A model generated the notes under the pieces. That model searched no databases. It was given only the letters and a program-made list of their open reading frames with translations, and had not been told where the DNA came from. A DNA stretch of 32,000 nt from Candidatus Brocadia sp. (GTDB lineage: Bacteria; Planctomycetota; Brocadiia; Brocadiales; Brocadiaceae), in the NCBI GenBank assembly GCA_021650915.1, contig CP091279.1, forward strand, positions 3,660,001 to 3,692,000, read 5' to 3'. Made by a program: the position numbers and the translations under genes. Shown one piece after another: positions 1 to 31,638 of the stretch (its first letter is position 1; every line of letters begins with the position of its first letter).

Positions 1-2394
1 AGCAGCAACGGAACGAATGCCATTGAGGTGCGGGGCGGAGGTATTACCTTAAGCCGCACCTGGGTTCCGCAAGACTTCTACTTCAATGTAACGGGGAGTG
101 GTATCCATGTATTTAGCGACGCCATATTGACAATAAACCCGGGGTCTCTGGTAAAGTTTAACGCTATGACAGGCCTTTACATCGGGTATTACAGCGCTGC
201 TACCTTGATCGCCGATGGCACGAGCGGCAATCCCATTACCTTTACCTCAAATGGGGCAACTCCTGCGCCTGGTGGCTGGGAGGGAATCGTTTTTTACAAC
301 TCCACAGATGACGCCTCAACGATTTTGGACTATTGCACCGTGGAATACGGCGGGTATGACACTTTCAATTCCAACATCAATTGCGACCAGGCTTCGCCTA
401 CCATCCAGAATTGCACCATACGGCACTCTGACGGGTATGGGATATATTGTGATAACGGCGCAGCCCCTACGCTTACAAACAATACGATAAGCAACAATGG
501 ATTATTCCCCATAAGCGAGTTCTGCAACACGCTGGACAGCAATGTGACTGGGAATACGGGGATCGGCAACACGCCAAACGCCATTGAGGTGCGGGGCGGG
601 AATATAACGTTAAGTCATACCTGGGTTCCGCAAGACTTCTACTTCAATGTAACGGGGAGTGGTATCCATGTATTTAGCGACGCCATATTGACAATAAACC
701 CGGGGTCTCTGGTAAAGTTTAACGCTATGACAGGCCTTTACATCGGGTATTACAGCGCTGCTACCTTGATCGCCGATGGCACGAGCGGCAATCCCATTAC
801 CTTTACCTCAAATGGGGCAACTCCTGCGCCTGGTGACTGGGAGGGAATCGTTTTTTACAACTCCACAGATGACGCCTCAACGATTTTGGACTATTGCACC
901 GTGGAATACGGCGGGTATGACACTTATAATTCCAACATCAACTGCAATCAGGCTTCGCCTACCATTCAGCGTTGTCTCATAAGAAATTCGGATGGCTATG
1001 GAATTCATACAACGGGTAGCGGCGCACAGCCATTGATTTCTTGTTCAACGATAACGGACAACACACATGGCGTCTATGTAGCTAGTGGTAATCCAACCAT
1101 AGAAAATTGCAGCATTGCAGGCAATACAAGTTACGGAGTTTTCACTAATACATTCATTTATGCAGAAAACAACTGGTGGGGTAATGCCAGCGGTCCATCC
1201 GGCGTTGGACCAGGCTCTGGCGATGCCGTCAGCAGCGATGTGGACTATACCCCATGGTTAAGCGCGTATAACAGTTGTCTTGAGACGATTGTTTTAAGCC
1301 CGTCATCTGAGACGAATCTTATCGGCACCCAGCATACCGTTACTGCGACCGTGACAGATGATGCTTCTGACCCAATGGAGGGTATCGTGTTATTTTTTTA
1401 CATTACCTCTGGCCCACACGCAGGGCTAAATAGTAATGTTACAACGGATTCAAATGGTCAGGCGACGTTTACCTACACGGGGACGCTGGAAGGCACGGAC
1501 ATAATTGAGGCGAGTTTTACCGATTTTCACGGGCGGACCATAACATCAGGTCCGGTCACAAAGACGTGGGAATCGTTACCACCGACTCCAACGCCAACGC
1601 CTTCACCAACGCCGACACCGGAGCCAACACCAAGTCCAACACCGTCTCCAACACCGGAGCCAACACCGAGTCCAACCCCAAGTCCAACTCCGTCTCCGAC
1701 ACCAAGTCCGACCCCGACCCCTGCAGCATGTCCTTGTCCGGACGCAGAGGCATGCTATTCCTTTGACGAAGGGAATGGGAATGTGGCTGGCGACTCGTCG
1801 GGCAATGGTCATAACGGCGCAATCGCTGGCGCAAGCTGGACCATCGGAAATGACGGCAGTGGTCTGAGTTTTGACGGGGTTGACGATGAGGTATCAATTC
1901 CGGTCCTGAACAGCGAGGAAGTCTCCTTCAGCGCATGGTTCTATAAGAATGCGAATAATCCGTTGAGATATAGTTTCATCTTCGACGGAATCAGGACGCA
2001 TTCTAATTCACAATTGAATGAAGGATTTGCTCTTAAATTCTTAAAGAGAAATCCAAACGTAGTGGGTTTTGCTGTTGTAACACAAAACTCAAACGGAAGA
2101 AGGAAGCTGAGGACTGCGTCATACGATCTGGGTAATTCCGTAGGCAGCTGGTATCACGTTGCAGGTACGTACGACAAGGCCACCGGCGAGCAGAAGTTGT
2201 ATGTCAATGGGCAGCTGGTCAGGATGGTAAGACACCCGGCAGGAAACGGCATCGTTCCGCTGACCTCTTATCCTGGCATGAAAATCGGGAATTCCTTGTC
2301 GAAGAAAGGTTGCTTCAATGGTGTCATCGATGGGGTTTGTATTTCCACTCGGGCATTGACCGAGCAGGAGGTGCTGGACATCTACAATAACTAA
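1..2394 (+). CDS. Large secreted/surface repeat protein, 5' end outside window: parallel beta-helix modules + Ig-like domain + Pro/Thr linker + C-terminal LamG/ConA-like lectin domain
   Basis: Frame 1 is open from base 1 ([14 protein letters not shown]...); the track starts it at an internal Met at 28. Two ~187-aa modules carry beta-helix style motifs ([42 protein letters not shown]). They are followed by NNWWGN..GPSG, an Ig-like stretch ([18 protein letters not shown]), a ~50-aa P-T/S linker and a LamG-like end ([24 protein letters not shown]). The last ~325 aa are identical to the 3242..6841 product. Confidence 0.85.
20..940. repeat. Intragenic tandem repeat, period 561 bp (beta-helix module)
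   Basis: 62-375 is almost base-for-base repeated at 623-936; I saw ~3 mismatches (ggtggctggg/ggtgactggg, ctttcaattcc/cttataattcc). Confidence 0.9.
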
Positions 2395-2885: not shown

Positions 2886-2913
2886 TTGAAAAATAATTAT
2901 TTTAAAGTATAAT
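2886..2913 (+). promoter_or_regulatory. Sigma-70-type promoter candidate
   Basis: TTGAAA (2886-2891), 16-nt spacer, TATAAT (2908-2913). It lies ~40 nt upstream of the riboswitch-like element in an AT-rich stretch. Confidence 0.5.
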
Positions 2914-2949
2914 ATCTGTGCCTCTTTTTTATTAAGCGGCATGATTAGT

Positions 2950-3045
2950 GGTTTGATAAAGGCAAACCCTGAGCAATCAGGGGACGCAAAGGAAAGGGTC
3001 TTCCCCTGTACACGGTAGTAGAGGGGTAAAATAACGGGTTGTTAC
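2950..3045 (+). promoter_or_regulatory. Candidate c-di-GMP-I (GEMM-I) riboswitch aptamer
   Basis: AAAGGCAAACC (2958-2968). A 6-bp helix ccctga/tcaggg capped by a GCAA (GNRA) tetraloop (2967-2982). GACGCAAAG (2983-2991). Downstream CGGTAGTAGAGGGG (3012-3025) and ACGGGTTG (3033-3040). As I recall it, this parallels V. cholerae Vc2: GGCAAACC-AUUCGAAAGAGU-GGGACGCAAAG ... CGGUAGGUAGCGGGGUUACCG. I could not fold the second hairpin convincingly by hand. Confidence 0.6.
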
Positions 3046-3076
3046 GTATACGGAAATACGGGTAGCACAAAAAGAT

Positions 3077-3130
3077 AGCCTTACTGCCAAAAAATATTTA
3101 TATAAATCTTTGGCAGTAAGGCTTTTTTTT
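3077..3130 (+). terminator. Rho-independent terminator (probable riboswitch expression platform)
   Basis: Perfect 15-bp stem agccttactgccaaa (3077-3091) / tttggcagtaaggct (3109-3123), a 17-nt AT loop and a T8 run (3123-3130). It sits 112 nt upstream of the 3242 start codon. Confidence 0.8.
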
Positions 3131-3241
3131 GGCTTTTTGGTGAAATTCATTTCGTGAAAGGAGGGCAATTGCAACAAAAGGTGGACATGGAAATGGCTGA
3201 ATATCAATTTTTTTGTTTTAGAGAAGAGGAGGAAATGACGT

Positions 3242-6200
3242 ATGACGATTAATAAAAAGTCTCGAACAACACCATCGCTGTTGAGCGCCATGGTGTTCAT
3301 ATGTGCGGTTTTTATGGTGACCTTATGCGGGACAGGGGTTACCTATGGACTTACCCATAGCAGCAATATTACCAGTGATGAGACGTGGTATGCCGCTGAC
3401 AATCCCCATATCGTTACAGGAGGCATACACGTATACAACAATGCTACATTAAAGATAGAGGCGGGGTGTCTGGTAAAGTTTGATCCAGGAGCGGTCCTTT
3501 ACATTGGGTATTACAGCGGGGCTGCCCTGAACGCCACGGGTACAAGCCTTAATCCCATCACCTTTACCTCAAATGCATCAACCCCTGCTGCTGGTGATTG
3601 GCTGGGAATCGTCTTTTTCAATAGCACCGTTGATAGCTCAACGATTATGGACTATTGCACGGTGGAATACGGCGGATACTCATCATATAATTCCAACATC
3701 TATTGCGACAACGCCTCGCCTACCATCCAGCATTGCACCATACGGCATTCTGACGGGTATGGGATATATTGTGACAACGGTTCAGCCCCCACGTTGACGA
3801 ACAATACGATAAGTAACAACATCATTTACCCAATAACCTTATTTTGCAACAATCTGGACACCCATGTAACGGGGAATACGGGGACCGGAAATGGGACGGA
3901 CGCCATTGAGGTGCGGGGCCAGAATATAACGTCAAGCCATACCTGGGTTCCGCAAGATTTCTACTTTAATGTAACGAGTAGTATCCATGTATTAAGTGAC
4001 GCCACCTTGACAATAAATCCGGGGAGTCTGGTGAAGTTTAATGCTAACACAGCCCTTTTCATCGGGTACTACAGCGGGGCTACCCTGGTTGCCGATGGTA
4101 CGAGCGGCAATCCCATCACCTTTACCTCGAATGCAGCAACCCCTGCACCTGGTGACTGGGCTGGAATCGTCTTTTTCAATAGCACCGTTGATAGCTCAAC
4201 GATTATGGACTATTGCACGGTGGAATACGGCGGATACTCAACATATGATTCCAACATCTATTGCGACAACGCCTCGCCTACCATCCAGCATTGCACCGTA
4301 CGGCATTCTGACGGGTATGGGATATATTGTGACAACGGTTCAGCCCCCACGTTGACGAACAATACGATAAGTAACAACATCATTTACCCAATAACCTTAT
4401 TTTGCAACAATCTGGACACCCATGTAACGGGGAATACGGGGACCGGAAATGGGACGGACGCCATTGAGGTGCGGGGCCAGAATATAACGTCAAGCCATAC
4501 CTGGGTTCCGCAAGATTTCTACTTTAATGTAACGAGTAGTATCCATGTATTAAGTGACGCCACCTTGACAATAAATCCCGGGAGTCTGGTGAAGTTTAAT
4601 GCTAACACAGCCCTTTTCATCGGGTACTACAGCGGGGCTACCCTGGTTGCCGATGGTACGAGCGGCAATCCGATCACCTTTACCTCGAATGCAGCAACCC
4701 CTGCACCTGGTGACTGGGCTGGAATCGTCTTCTTCAATCACACGGTGGATGTCTCAACGATTATGGACCATTGCACGGTGGAATACGGCGGATACTCATC
4801 ATATGATTCCAACATCTATTGCGACAACGCCTCGCCTACCATCCAGCATTGCACCATACGTTATTCTGACGGGTATGGGATATTTTGTGACAACATTTCA
4901 GCCCCCACGTTGACCAACAATACGATAAGCAACAACAGTTTATTCCCCATACGCGAGTATAGCAACATGCTGGACAGCAATGTGACGGGCAATACCGGAA
5001 GCAATAATGGGACGAATGCCATTGAGGTGCGGGGTGGAAGTATAACGTCAAGCCATACCTGGGTTCCACAAGACTTCTACTTCAATGTAACGGAGGCTAT
5101 CTATGTATATGGTAACGCCACCTTGACGATAAATCCGGGGAGTCTGGTGAAGTTTAATGCAGGCGCAGGCTTTTACATCGGGTATTACAGCGGAGCTGCT
5201 TTGGTAGCCGATGGTACGAGCGGTGATCCTATCATCTTTACCTCAAATGTATCAACCCCTGCGCCTGGCGACTGGCTAGGGATCGTATTCTTCATTCATA
5301 CCAATAATAGCGCGACGATTATGGACAATTGCACGGTGGAATACGGCGGATACGGATCATATAATTCCAACATTAACTGCAATCAGGCTTCGCCTACCAT
5401 TCAGCGTTGTATCATAAGAAATTCGGATGGACATGGAGTTTTTACAACGGGTAACGGCGCACAACCATTGATCTCTTGTTCAACAATAACGGGCAATCAG
5501 CATGGTGTCTATGCAGAAAATAGTTCCAATCCAACCGTAGTAAATTGCAGTATTAGCGGCAATACCACGTACGGTGTTTACAATGTTACCAGCGCCATTA
5601 CCCTCGCCGCTGCGAACAACTGGTGGGGTAACACCAGCGGCCCGTCCGGCGTTGGACCAGGTGCTGGCGATGCCGTCAGCAACTATGTGGACTATACCCC
5701 ATGGTTAAGCGCGTATGACAGTTGTCTTGAGACGATTGTGTTAAGCCCGGCATCTGAGACGAATCTTATCGGCACCCAGCATACCGTTACTGCGACCGTG
5801 ACAGATGATGCTTCTGACCCAATAGAGGGCATCGTGTTATTTTTCGACATTACCGCTGGCCCACACGCGGGGCTAAATAGTAATGTCACAACGGATTCAA
5901 ATGGTCAGGCGACGTTTACCTACACGGGGACGCTGGAAGGCACGGACATAATTGAGGCGAGTTTTACCGATTTCCACGGGCGGACCATAACATCAGGTCC
6001 GGTCACAAAGACGTGGGAATCGTTACCACCGACTCCGACGCCAACGCCTTCACCAACGCCGACACCGGAGCCAACACCAAGTCCAACACCGTCTCCAACA
6101 CCGGAGCCAACACCGAGTCCGACCCCAAGTCCAACTCCGTCTCCGACACCAAGTCCGACACCGACCCCTGCAGCATGTCCTTGTCCGGACGCAGAGGCAT

Positions 6201-6841
6201 GCTATTCCTTTGACGAAGGGAATGGGAATGTGGCTGGCGACTCGTCGGGCAATGGTCATAACGGCGCAATCGCTGGCGCAAGCTGGACCATCGGAAATGA
6301 CGGCAGTGGTCTGAGTTTTGACGGGGTTGACGATGAGGTATCAATTCCGGTCCTGAACAGCGAGGAAGTCTCCTTCAGCGCATGGTTCTATAAGAATGCG
6401 AATAATCCGTTGAGATATAGTTTCATCTTCGACGGAATCAGGACGCATTCTAATTCACAATTGAATGAAGGATTTGCTCTTAAATTCTTAAAGAGAAATC
6501 CAAACGTAGTGGGTTTTGCTGTTGTAACACAAAACTCAAACGGAAGAAGGAAGCTGAGGACTGCGTCATACGATCTGGGTAATTCCGTAGGCAGCTGGTA
6601 TCACGTTGCAGGTACGTACGACAAGGCCACCGGCGAGCAGAAGTTGTATGTCAATGGGCAGCTGGTCAGGATGGTAAGACACCCGGCAGGAAACGGCATC
6701 GTTCCGCTGACCTCTTATCCTGGCATGAAAATCGGGAATTCCTTGTCGAAGAAAGGTTGCTTCAATGGTGTCATCGATGGGGTTTGTATTTCCACTCGGG
6801 CATTGACCGAGCAGGAGGTGCTGGACATCTACAATAACTAA
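3242..6841 (+). CDS. 1199-aa secreted/surface repeat protein: signal/anchor peptide, four ~186-aa beta-helix modules, terminal beta-helix cap, Ig-like domain, Pro/Thr linker, LamG/ConA-like lectin domain
   Basis: RBS gaggagg lies 8 nt before the ATG. The N-terminus has a basic stretch followed by a hydrophobic one ([26 protein letters not shown]). Modules repeat [12 protein letters not shown]...GDWAGIVFF...CTVEYGG...[26 protein letters not shown], Ig-like, PT-linker and LamG motifs as in the upstream paralogue. Confidence 0.92.
3601..4730. repeat. Intragenic tandem repeat, period 558 bp, ~2 nearly identical copies (more diverged copies extend ~3340-5400)
   Basis: 3601-4172 matches 4159-4730 with about six mismatches seen by eye. 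The ORF-track alternate-frame ORFs 4041..4355 and 4599..4913 translate almost identically. Confidence 0.9.
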
Positions 6842-6885
6842 CGAAGGCAAGCTCTCAACGGAGGAGGTTGAGGAGCGGAGTAAAG

Positions 6886-6952
6886 ACAGGCAGGGGGCGT
6901 TTCCCGATGTTTCAGAGACATGAGGGAATTCGTCTCCTGCCTGTTTGTTTTA
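6886..6952 (+). terminator. Second copy of the long hairpin/T-rich candidate terminator
   Basis: Same sequence as 2439-2505 at offset 4447. The single c-to-t change converts a G-C pair into G-U, so pairing is retained. Confidence 0.45.
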
Positions 6953-7140
6953 TGGCAAGAAATTTCACGAAGCCGCTGAAATCTCTTCTCCGTCTTGTCT
7001 GTAGACGGACAGGCCAAGAAAACCCTGAACGAGGAAATCGTTGCAACAAAGGCCTAAATATGCTATAAAGACCATTTATCCTTGATGCTCCCCTTCCGCT
7101 GGTTCATGGATCTGTTCTGCCAAGGCGCTTAATGCAGAGG

Positions 7141-8229: not shown

Positions 8230-8359
8230 AATTAGGCCTTCGGCAACTTTGTTGCAATTACACGTTTTTTTCAACAAAACTCCACCCCCTTCACCCCTGC
8301 CAGCGGGGGACAGTTATTGTCACCCTCACTGAGGGGGATTAAGGGGGAGGTAAAATTTT
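8230..8359. repeat. Dispersed repeat family D, copy 2 (right arm of the inverted repeat)
   Basis: aattaggccttcggcaactttgttgcaattacacgtttttttcaacaaaactccacccccttcacccctgccagcgggggacagttattgtcaccctcactgagggggattaagggggaggtaaaatttt. Confidence 0.85.
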
Positions 8360-8360
8360 G

Positions 8361-8627
8361 GTAACAATTTAGTTTTTTGAAAAATCCCGAAGGGATGACA
8401 TGATTATAGAAAAAACGCGTCACCATATTCAACCTCGTAGAGGTGAAATATCGAGAAAATAACGATACTATGCCACCCCTACGGGGTTAGCCATAATTGC
8501 ATAACCATGTGCTATAATCATGGCATCCCTTCGGGATTACAGAATCATTATCTTGTTCACTCGTAGTGATTGTGAGCAAAAGTATGCTGAATAGATACGA
8601 GAAATTTTCAAAAAGCTAAATTGTTAC
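8361..8627. mobile_element. MITE-like element (family E), long 267-bp variant
   Basis: TIRs gtaacaatttagttttttgaaaaat (8361-8385) and attttcaaaaagctaaattgttac (8604-8627). An internal 25-bp stem, tcccgaagggatgacatgattatag (8385-8409) / ctataatcatggcatcccttcggga (8512-8536), has one mismatch. Confidence 0.65.
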
Positions 8628-8653
8628 AAATTTTGAAATTCCTTGTCATAATA

Positions 8654-20728: not shown

Positions 20729-20865
20729 GTAACACTTTAGTTTTTTGAAAAATTCCAGTAATGATGCGATTATCGTACATGGTAGAGGCAATTCATGAAT
20801 TGCCTTTACCTATTGACCCTAAGGTGTTTTCAGCTATTGACATTTTCAAAAAACTAAAGTGTTAC
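20729..20865. mobile_element. MITE-like element (family E), 137 bp
   Basis: TIRs gtaacactttagttttttgaaaaat (20729-20753) and attttcaaaaaactaaagtgttac (20842-20865). The core hairpin ggtagaggcaattcatgaattgcctttacc (20781-20810) differs from the cores of the other copies. Confidence 0.65.
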
Positions 20866-31510: not shown

Positions 31511-31638
31511 TAACCATGTAGCTTTTTGAAAAATCCCAATAAAGGCGATGTTTACCCCGTGTAGGGGCAGGTTTCAAACCTGCCCCTACAAGACAATAGT
31601 ATTTATGGAGAGAATTTTTCAAAAAGCCAGATCGTTAC
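31510..31638. mobile_element. MITE-like element (family E), 129 bp
   Basis: TIRs gtaaccatgtagctttttgaaaaat (31510-31534) and atttttcaaaaagccagatcgttac (31614-31638). Core hairpin gtaggggcaggtttcaaacctgcccctac (31561-31589). Its first base is the last base of the upstream stop codon. Confidence 0.6.

Follow-up and report, generated by a model that had tools for sequence, protein, structure and literature searches.

Within the window, i.e. the whole 32,000-nt stretch of DNA that was analysed, a gene for a 1199-aa protein is preceded on the same strand by a 5′ leader in which an aptamer and an intrinsic terminator lie between a promoter and the start codon (Table 1). The protein begins with an N-terminus that by eye resembles a signal sequence. 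It continues with four parallel beta-helix modules of ~186 aa and a Big_1 Ig-like domain, followed by a long Pro/Thr/Ser-rich linker and a Laminin_G_3 domain. Together with the NosD assignment in Table 1, this layout agrees with the beta-helix/LamG protein described in an earlier note on this DNA. Judging from its domains, the product is most likely a secreted surface protein. Adhesin-like and surface-protein-like domains are typical of GEMM regulons. An exact look-up of the 1199-aa protein gave no entry on record, and the source was assigned from four neighbouring proteins, whose sequences match Candidatus Brocadia fulgida entries exactly. Behind the gene stands a terminator-like hairpin (ACAGGCAGGGG / CUCCUGCCUGU) with a T-rich tail, which marks the gene as a single-gene (monocistronic) unit; an identical copy of this hairpin is found behind an upstream paralog.

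The two tandem beta-helix/Big_1/LamG paralogs (window 28-2394 and 3242-6841) are 86% identical overall. Their last ~360 aa are 100% identical, as are the 3′ flank and terminator (~2395-2507 = 6842-6954), and the pair suggests a recent duplication or gene conversion. The upstream paralog's own leader falls outside the window. The surroundings also contain MITE-like repeats with terminal inverted repeats TTTAGYTTTTTGAAAAAT, at 2521-2646, 8358-8630, 20736-20858 (possibly to 21179) and 31517-31631. The TTTAGYTTTTTGAAAAAT pattern has nine matches in the window against 0.02 expected, and all copies are intergenic. Copies that are 88% identical occur in two related loci (L025 and L020). A long hairpin (-102 kcal/mol, z -11.3) is predicted for the copy at 8360-8640; it accounts for weak matches resembling plant miRNAs and sRNAs in a permissive Rfam scan.

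The putative promoter matches the sigma-70 consensus at 11 of 12 positions and is the best promoter-like site between 2000 and 8000. The earlier note had read TTGAAA-16-TATAAT at this place, and the motif AAAGGCAAACC, which it had put about 45 nt downstream, indeed begins 45 nt after the -10 hexamer. At the other end of the leader, the spacer between attenuator and start codon contains a candidate upstream ORF (3187-3252) of 21 codons, with a GGTGG ribosome-binding-like site and an end 10 nt past the main ATG. An analogous ORF of 18 codons is found in the leader from Brocadia sp. WS118, where its stop overlaps the main start codon (ATGA). Both upstream ORFs could be due to chance. An antisense ORF running across the leader (2977-3300, minus strand, 107 aa) was rejected as spurious, since it overlaps a conserved structured RNA.

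Table 1. Features of the leader, the regulated gene and related riboswitches (window coordinates unless a related locus is named)
Feature	Position	Strand	Description or basis
Sigma-70-type promoter	2886-2913	+	TTGAAA 2886-2891, 16-nt spacer, TATAAT 2908-2913
c-di-GMP-I (GEMM-I) aptamer, complete	2951-3091	+	RF01051 covariance model
P1 5′ strand UUUG	2952-2955	+	Pairs with CAAA 3088-3091; direct reading
AAAGGCAAACC	starts 2958	+	45 nt past the -10 hexamer
G20 equivalent	2961	+	Rfam alignment
First hairpin	2962-2987	+	RF01051 alignment, sequence reading
GACGCAAAG	2983-2991	+	Sequence reading
A47 equivalent, first A of the AAA linker	2988	+	Rfam alignment
Second hairpin 5′ strand AGGAAAGGGUC	2990-3000	+	Rfam alignment
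Distal insertion in second hairpin	3001-3073	+	73 nt; Rfam alignment
Second hairpin 3′ strand GAUAGCCUUACU	3074-3085	+	Rfam alignment
C92 equivalent	3087	+	Rfam alignment
Intrinsic terminator (attenuator)	3077-3130	+	5′ arm 3077-3091, loop 3092-3108, 3′ arm 3109-3123
Spacer, attenuator to start codon	3131-3241	+	Direct reading
Regulated gene, 1199 aa	3242-6841	+	Beta_helix, NosD, Big_1, Laminin_G_3 domains
Terminator-like hairpin ACAGGCAGGGG / CUCCUGCCUGU with T-rich tail	6886-6953	+	Direct reading
Intact riboswitch	L002 3746-3839		Directly upstream of homolog, Brocadia sp. WS118; Rfam scan
Intact riboswitch	L002 6442-6535		Upstream of small ORF, same WS118 locus; Rfam scan
Intact riboswitch	L001 5352-5445		Upstream of another gene, B. 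carolinensis; Rfam scan

Aptamer architecture and ligand pocket

Comparison of the whole window with 4227 Rfam families yields a single match at gathering level. It is to RF01051 (c-di-GMP-I), with 55.1 bits against a gathering score of 35, an E-value of 2.4e-8 and an alignment over the full model (positions 1-87 of 87). This score and the full-length match indicate a resemblance far beyond chance. A permissive scan of the window (E ≤ 5) gives zero matches to the control family RF01786 (c-di-GMP-II) and none to other riboswitch families. The GEMM-I aptamer claimed in the earlier note is thus recovered by the covariance model, and all elements of the signature layout listed there are present where it had located them.

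The first hairpin is composed of a 2-bp GC/GC outer helix (2962-2963 with 2986-2987), an AAA internal loop and a 6-bp inner helix CCCUGA/UCAGGG (2967-2972 / 2977-2982). The inner helix is closed by a GCAA tetraloop at 2973-2976, as had been described, and the hairpin is joined to the second one by an AAA linker (A2988-A2990). Relatives were collected by a pattern scan of a metagenome collection, which found at least 112 stretches with the same aptamer type; the matches listed provide 109 unique copies, 99 of them with an identifiable 3′ strand. Among 78 distinct relatives from the matches listed, 98.2% of the cells of the first hairpin are paired, and double-sided changes occur in five of its six pairs (48 such cells); none of 500 shuffles equals these values. 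Helix P1 is CG/CG in most relatives and UG/CA in the window, in the orthologous locus L025 and in one other, i.e. a double change from C-G to U-A.

In the Rfam alignment the pocket positions are canonical. They are G2961, A2988 and C3087, which we take to be the counterparts of G20, A47 and C92 in the numbering of the solved Vc2 structures. In crystal structures of Vc2, G20 contacts one guanine of the ligand, A47 intercalates between the two ligand bases and C92 is Watson-Crick paired to the other guanine; the base at position 20 is A in cGAMP-selective variants. The equivalent of C3087, a position left free in the search pattern, is kept in nearly all relatives among the matches listed. The G20 and A47 positions were set by the pattern, so that their conservation across the family is circular and was unused as evidence. 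The c-AMP-GMP variants are set apart by one nucleotide of the pocket. The earlier note had assigned this role to the base directly before CAAACC (G2962), one position off the true base, G2961, which lies two bases before it; the conclusion in favour of c-di-GMP holds, both bases being G.

The pocket also bears on the possibility that the RNA senses another ligand, either 3′3′-cGAMP, as do the GEMM-Ib riboswitches of Geobacter, or both dinucleotides promiscuously. The scaffold of these cGAMP-sensing variants is the same as that of the window, but their discriminating pocket base is A whereas the window has G2961 at the G20 equivalent, and a GEMM-Ib reading was rejected on this basis. The window also scores slightly higher on RF03167 (c-di-GMP-I-GGC, 57.5 bits) than on RF01051 (55.1), which suggests a clade somewhat apart from typical members. 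However, 57.5 bits is below the gathering score of 59 for that family. Moreover, position 47 is A2988 in the window, and the relatives share this A (GACGCAAAG), whereas the RF03167 consensus has G (GACGCGAAG). Membership in RF03167 was rejected for these two reasons. The RF03167 model includes the closing helix P1, a likeness to the window, and the leaders of two Brocadia paralogs score above its gathering threshold. Independently of the pocket, c-di-GMP is reported to go along with EPS production and aggregation in anammox sludge. A ligand other than, or in addition to, c-di-GMP is consequently quite improbable, and by its residues the window carries a standard GAC-type aptamer.

Collectively, the segment 2951-3091 qualifies on sequence grounds as a genuine class I c-di-GMP riboswitch aptamer and as an ordinary member of the class. 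All sequence-level defining features of c-di-GMP-I are present, and binding of the ligand is predicted. With Vc2, the RF01051 riboswitch of Vibrio cholerae, it shares the two-hairpin core, the signature GGCAAAC...GNRA...GACGCAAAG, the AAA linker, the bulged A and AG in the second hairpin, the three pocket bases and the location in a 5′-UTR. Unlike Vc2, it has a GCAA tetraloop and no 11-nt receptor, a second hairpin enlarged by a 73-nt insertion with two hairpins, and a terminator that overlaps the aptamer directly.

Second hairpin and distal insertion

The second hairpin, which could not be drawn by hand in the earlier note, exists in the covariance-model alignment, where nine standard pairs and one G-A mismatch join 2990-3000 to 3074-3085. 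The bulges typical of the class, A in the 5′ strand and AG in the 3′ strand, are present. Two motifs reported earlier from this region, CGGTAGTAGAGGGG and ACGGGTTG, do occur; as strands of the second hairpin they have to be discarded, for they lie inside the distal insertion. Evidence for the helix comes from the covariance model. Neither single-sequence folding nor RNAalifold recovers it, its covariation within the clade is almost zero, and conservation of its 5′ strand is partly circular, this strand having been set by the search pattern.

For the aptamer-only RNA, an alternative fold is 11 kcal/mol better than the aptamer fold. In both RNAalifold and single-sequence folding, AAAGGC (2958-2963) preferably pairs with GCCUU (3078-3082), or GCCUU(A) up to 3083. 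The pocket strand would in this way associate with the shared 3′ strand, which may be a fold of the ligand-free RNA other than the terminator. Since thermodynamic folding misses the second hairpin, the aptamer fold must rely on tertiary and ligand energy, a situation that is usual for the c-di-GMP-I class.

The distal insertion covers ~71-73 nt versus 17 nt in the RF01051 model. Folding predicts two hairpins in it, hairpin A at 3003-3026 (loop ACGGUA) and hairpin B at 3045-3060 (loop ACGGAA), and hairpin A shows two compensatory pairs among seven sequences. The two halves of the insertion align with a score of 3, versus -8.8 ± 3.8 for shuffled sequences (5 of 2000 shuffles are as good), and the insertion is probably a tandem duplication of a ~40-nt unit. 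Across the relatives among the matches listed, the distal segment varies from 7 to 194 nt; the 73 nt of the window represent one state of a hypervariable segment. Stems of variable length in the second hairpin were already noted in the original description of the class (Weinberg et al. 2007, PMC1950547). In addition, a UAC-A(N)GGNA-GUA stem-loop recurs distally in 18 of the 86 unique inserts among the matches listed, including window positions 3009-3020 and 3046-3059; the commonest 6-mers in these inserts are GAAGTA and ACAGGG.

An insertion of 73 nt might impair folding, and the riboswitch could then be a decaying relic, disabled by the insertion, with a constitutive or inactive terminator and a gene unresponsive to c-di-GMP. 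Several observations go in this direction: the insertion is four times as long as in the model, it holds a second copy resembling the 5′ strand (AACGGGUUGU, 3033-3042) that could mispair with 3074-3082, and a related copy in WS118 is split by an ISL3 element, so that loss does occur in this gene family. However, all conserved core positions of the window aptamer are intact. The L025 ortholog, with a leader that is 92% identical, keeps all aptamer stems and ligand-contact bases, and its two substitutions in the insertion fall in one hairpin loop and one linker. Furthermore, relatives with insertions of 73-194 nt among the matches listed have perfect cores and terminators, and members of the class are known to differ in the length of the distal second hairpin (PMC1950547). 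Decay is, on this balance, improbable.

Terminator overlap and direction of control

The perfect 15-bp stem followed by T8 that the earlier note had seen upstream of the gene is confirmed, with an energy of -23.3 kcal/mol. The eight T occupy 3123-3130, of which T3123 still belongs to the stem, and 111 nt separate their end from the start codon at 3242. The leader as a whole has a folding z of -6.5, and its minimum-energy structure includes this terminator. No nucleotide of the 5′ arm (3077-3091) falls outside the aptamer: the arm takes up 9 of the 12 bases of the second-hairpin 3′ strand, G3086, C3087 and the P1 3′ strand. Since the 5′ arm of the terminator and the 3′ strands of the aptamer are the same nucleotides, the two folds are mutually exclusive. 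For the RNA 2945-3126, the unconstrained minimum-energy fold, with the terminator, has -59.9 kcal/mol versus -33.5 kcal/mol for the aptamer-constrained fold, which makes the terminator the default fold. Competition of terminator and aptamer for the same RNA, which the earlier note had proposed to look for, is thus predicted.

The overlap is conserved in the relatives. A copy was counted if a hairpin begins in its aptamer 3′ strand and the 9 nt behind this hairpin contain at least 5 T. An overlapping terminator of this kind is present in 82 of the 99 analysable unique copies among the matches listed, with a median stem of 20 pairs and a median energy of -24 kcal/mol; several of the remaining 17 copies fail only by the strictness of the definition. 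In the same set of listed matches, the terminator 3′ arm compensates changes in the shared strand. At 3083, A-U is replaced by G-C in five copies and by G-U in four, and at 3086, G-C is replaced by A-U in eight copies.

Such an arrangement has precedents. In 78 of 322 GEMM RNAs, the terminator shares sequence with the 3′ side of P2, and for these it was proposed that the ligand raises expression, and GEMM RNAs were reported to be common in Planctomycetes (Weinberg et al. 2007, PMC1950547, Fig. 2B for the overlap). The window has the identical architecture, with the terminator 5′ arm set against the second-hairpin 3′ strand, and the same predicted logic. The one distinction is that its overlap also takes in C92 and the 3′ strand of P1; otherwise there is no difference in principle. 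A further parallel is Bc2 of Bacillus thuringiensis (PMC4933901), a class I c-di-GMP riboswitch of the cap collagen adhesion gene, which it is reported to keep repressed at basal c-di-GMP. Like the window, Bc2 sits in the 5′-UTR of a gene for a large surface protein; unlike it, the host belongs to the Bacillota and the adhesin family is different.

Promoter-like sites are a recurrent feature of the family. Sites with at least 10 of 12 consensus positions lie upstream of 28 of 104 aptamers among the matches listed versus 7 of 104 shuffled controls, often 44-50 nt before AAAGG, and the orthologous leader in L025 has TTGCAA-16-TATAAT. In the window, transcription most likely starts near 2920, as predicted from the promoter.

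These features point, with good confidence, to a c-di-GMP-I ON switch that would act by blocking a terminator in a single-gene unit of Candidatus Brocadia fulgida. The promoter at 2886-2913 would direct transcription from about 2920 onwards. In the absence of ligand, the weak aptamer helices would lose to the 15-bp terminator stem, and RNA polymerase would stop at ~3130 after a transcript of ~210 nt. With c-di-GMP bound, the aptamer would keep 3077-3091, the terminator would be blocked and read-through into the 1199-aa gene would follow, so that high c-di-GMP would turn the gene on. The arrangement is that of an ON-type switch, with a 5′ arm within the aptamer, a 15-bp stem and eight T. Since the ligand-bound fold excludes the terminator, ON logic is the most likely direction of regulation, a view drawn from the structure. 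The original reading of a riboswitch plus terminator gains support, at the level of sequence, from the RF01051 match and from the gene domains.

The opposite direction, an OFF switch, or action on translation rather than on transcription, is highly improbable. OFF-type c-di-GMP-I riboswitches do exist, Vc2 for instance, and about eight relatives among the matches listed have a separate downstream terminator with possible OFF logic. In the window, however, the terminator 5′ arm is entirely in the aptamer, the bound aptamer leaves no terminator, and a separate anti-terminator is absent. Concerning translation, the Shine-Dalgarno sequence GAGGAGG (3226-3232) lies ~95 nt past the T-run, i.e. outside the switch, and is not complementary to the aptamer. 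Control of translation by the aptamer is therefore unlikely, and this option was rejected, the ribosome-binding site being far from the switch.

Sister elements and significance in anammox bacteria

Homologs of the 1199-aa protein are found in other Brocadia assemblies, and three intact riboswitches were located at loci of Brocadia sp. WS118 and B. carolinensis (Table 1). Each of the three uses AGCCUUAC(A)UGCC twice, as 3′ strand of the aptamer and as 5′ arm of the terminator. The Rfam scan of the B. carolinensis locus (L001) shows its homolog of the regulated gene to be without a riboswitch; upstream of this homolog, L001 1100-1640 contains repeated palindromic units of the CCCCCCGTAAACGGGGGGAAACAG type. 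In another WS118 locus (L003 2304-3875), an ISL3-family element sits within the distal insertion and splits the riboswitch upstream of a homologous beta-helix gene. The terminal inverted repeats of the element are perfect, and its target duplication, CAATTAAA, is 8 bp long. The terminator and hairpin B (CGUAUACGGAAAUACG, the same sequence as window 3045-3060) are retained in the 3′ half, and the split has the appearance of a natural sensor knock-out. In L025, the region orthologous to window 3131-3160 is expanded (1486-1976), with ~490 nt between the terminator and the orthologous gene; this insert includes a copy of the MITE-like element.

Other relatives differ in the number or the wiring of their units. 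In eight loci (L023, L052, L086, L094, L099, L107, L112 and L116), the terminator is separate and lies further downstream; its 5′ arm, AACCUUACU..., imitates the 3′ strand of the aptamer. In these loci the aptamer strand, when free, could serve as an anti-terminator, giving OFF logic with the same aptamer. Tandem complete units, 220-300 nt apart and on anammox-type contigs, occur as three copies within 1.7 kb in L036 and as two copies each in L028, L048, L049, L080, L102 and L121. Tandem c-di-GMP-I arrangements are already known (Weinberg et al. 2007, PMC1950547). The first ORFs after 51 sister riboswitches among the matches listed are diverse and encode Ig-like repeat, RCC1-repeat and N_methyl/DUF1559 pseudopilin-like proteins, as well as an M6 peptidase, glycosyltransferases and a sigma-54 activator. 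They fit the environment, membrane and motility genes described for GEMM regulons (Weinberg et al. 2007, PMC1950547).

Both the ON architecture and the presence of GEMM RNAs in Planctomycetes have been known since 2007, and to these the window adds one member; for RNA biology it is a routine representative of a well-studied class. A broader proposal is tentative and rather doubtful: Brocadia-type anammox bacteria would have multiplied a near-invariant unit of GEMM-I aptamer and overlapping terminator before >100 unrelated genes, with an additional function residing in the distal segment. The genes behind such units may mostly code for surface, secretion, glycosyltransferase and signalling proteins. 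Together, as genes switched on directly by c-di-GMP, they would make up a very large regulon, possibly the basis of granule formation. The distal segment with its A-N-G-G-N-A loops, two of which are in the window, may be a substitute tertiary dock or a protein-binding site and not a neutral expansion.

In anammox granular sludge, c-di-GMP is reported to correlate with EPS production and aggregation, in a source that refers to work on Candidatus Jettenia. Within an incomplete coverage of the literature, no paper on c-di-GMP riboswitches or riboswitch effectors in anammox bacteria was found, and a search for riboswitches in anammox bacteria, Brocadia and Kuenenia returned nothing relevant. In this context, the present locus names a concrete effector-target pair, namely a predicted c-di-GMP RNA sensor and a 1199-aa beta-helix/Ig-like/LamG protein. 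In an anammox bacterium, c-di-GMP and a surface protein would thereby be linked directly, in a way open to testing. The sister elements sketch a candidate regulon, for which metatranscriptomes could serve as readout if coverage on the two sides of each attenuator is compared; this needs no genetics in these uncultivable bacteria.
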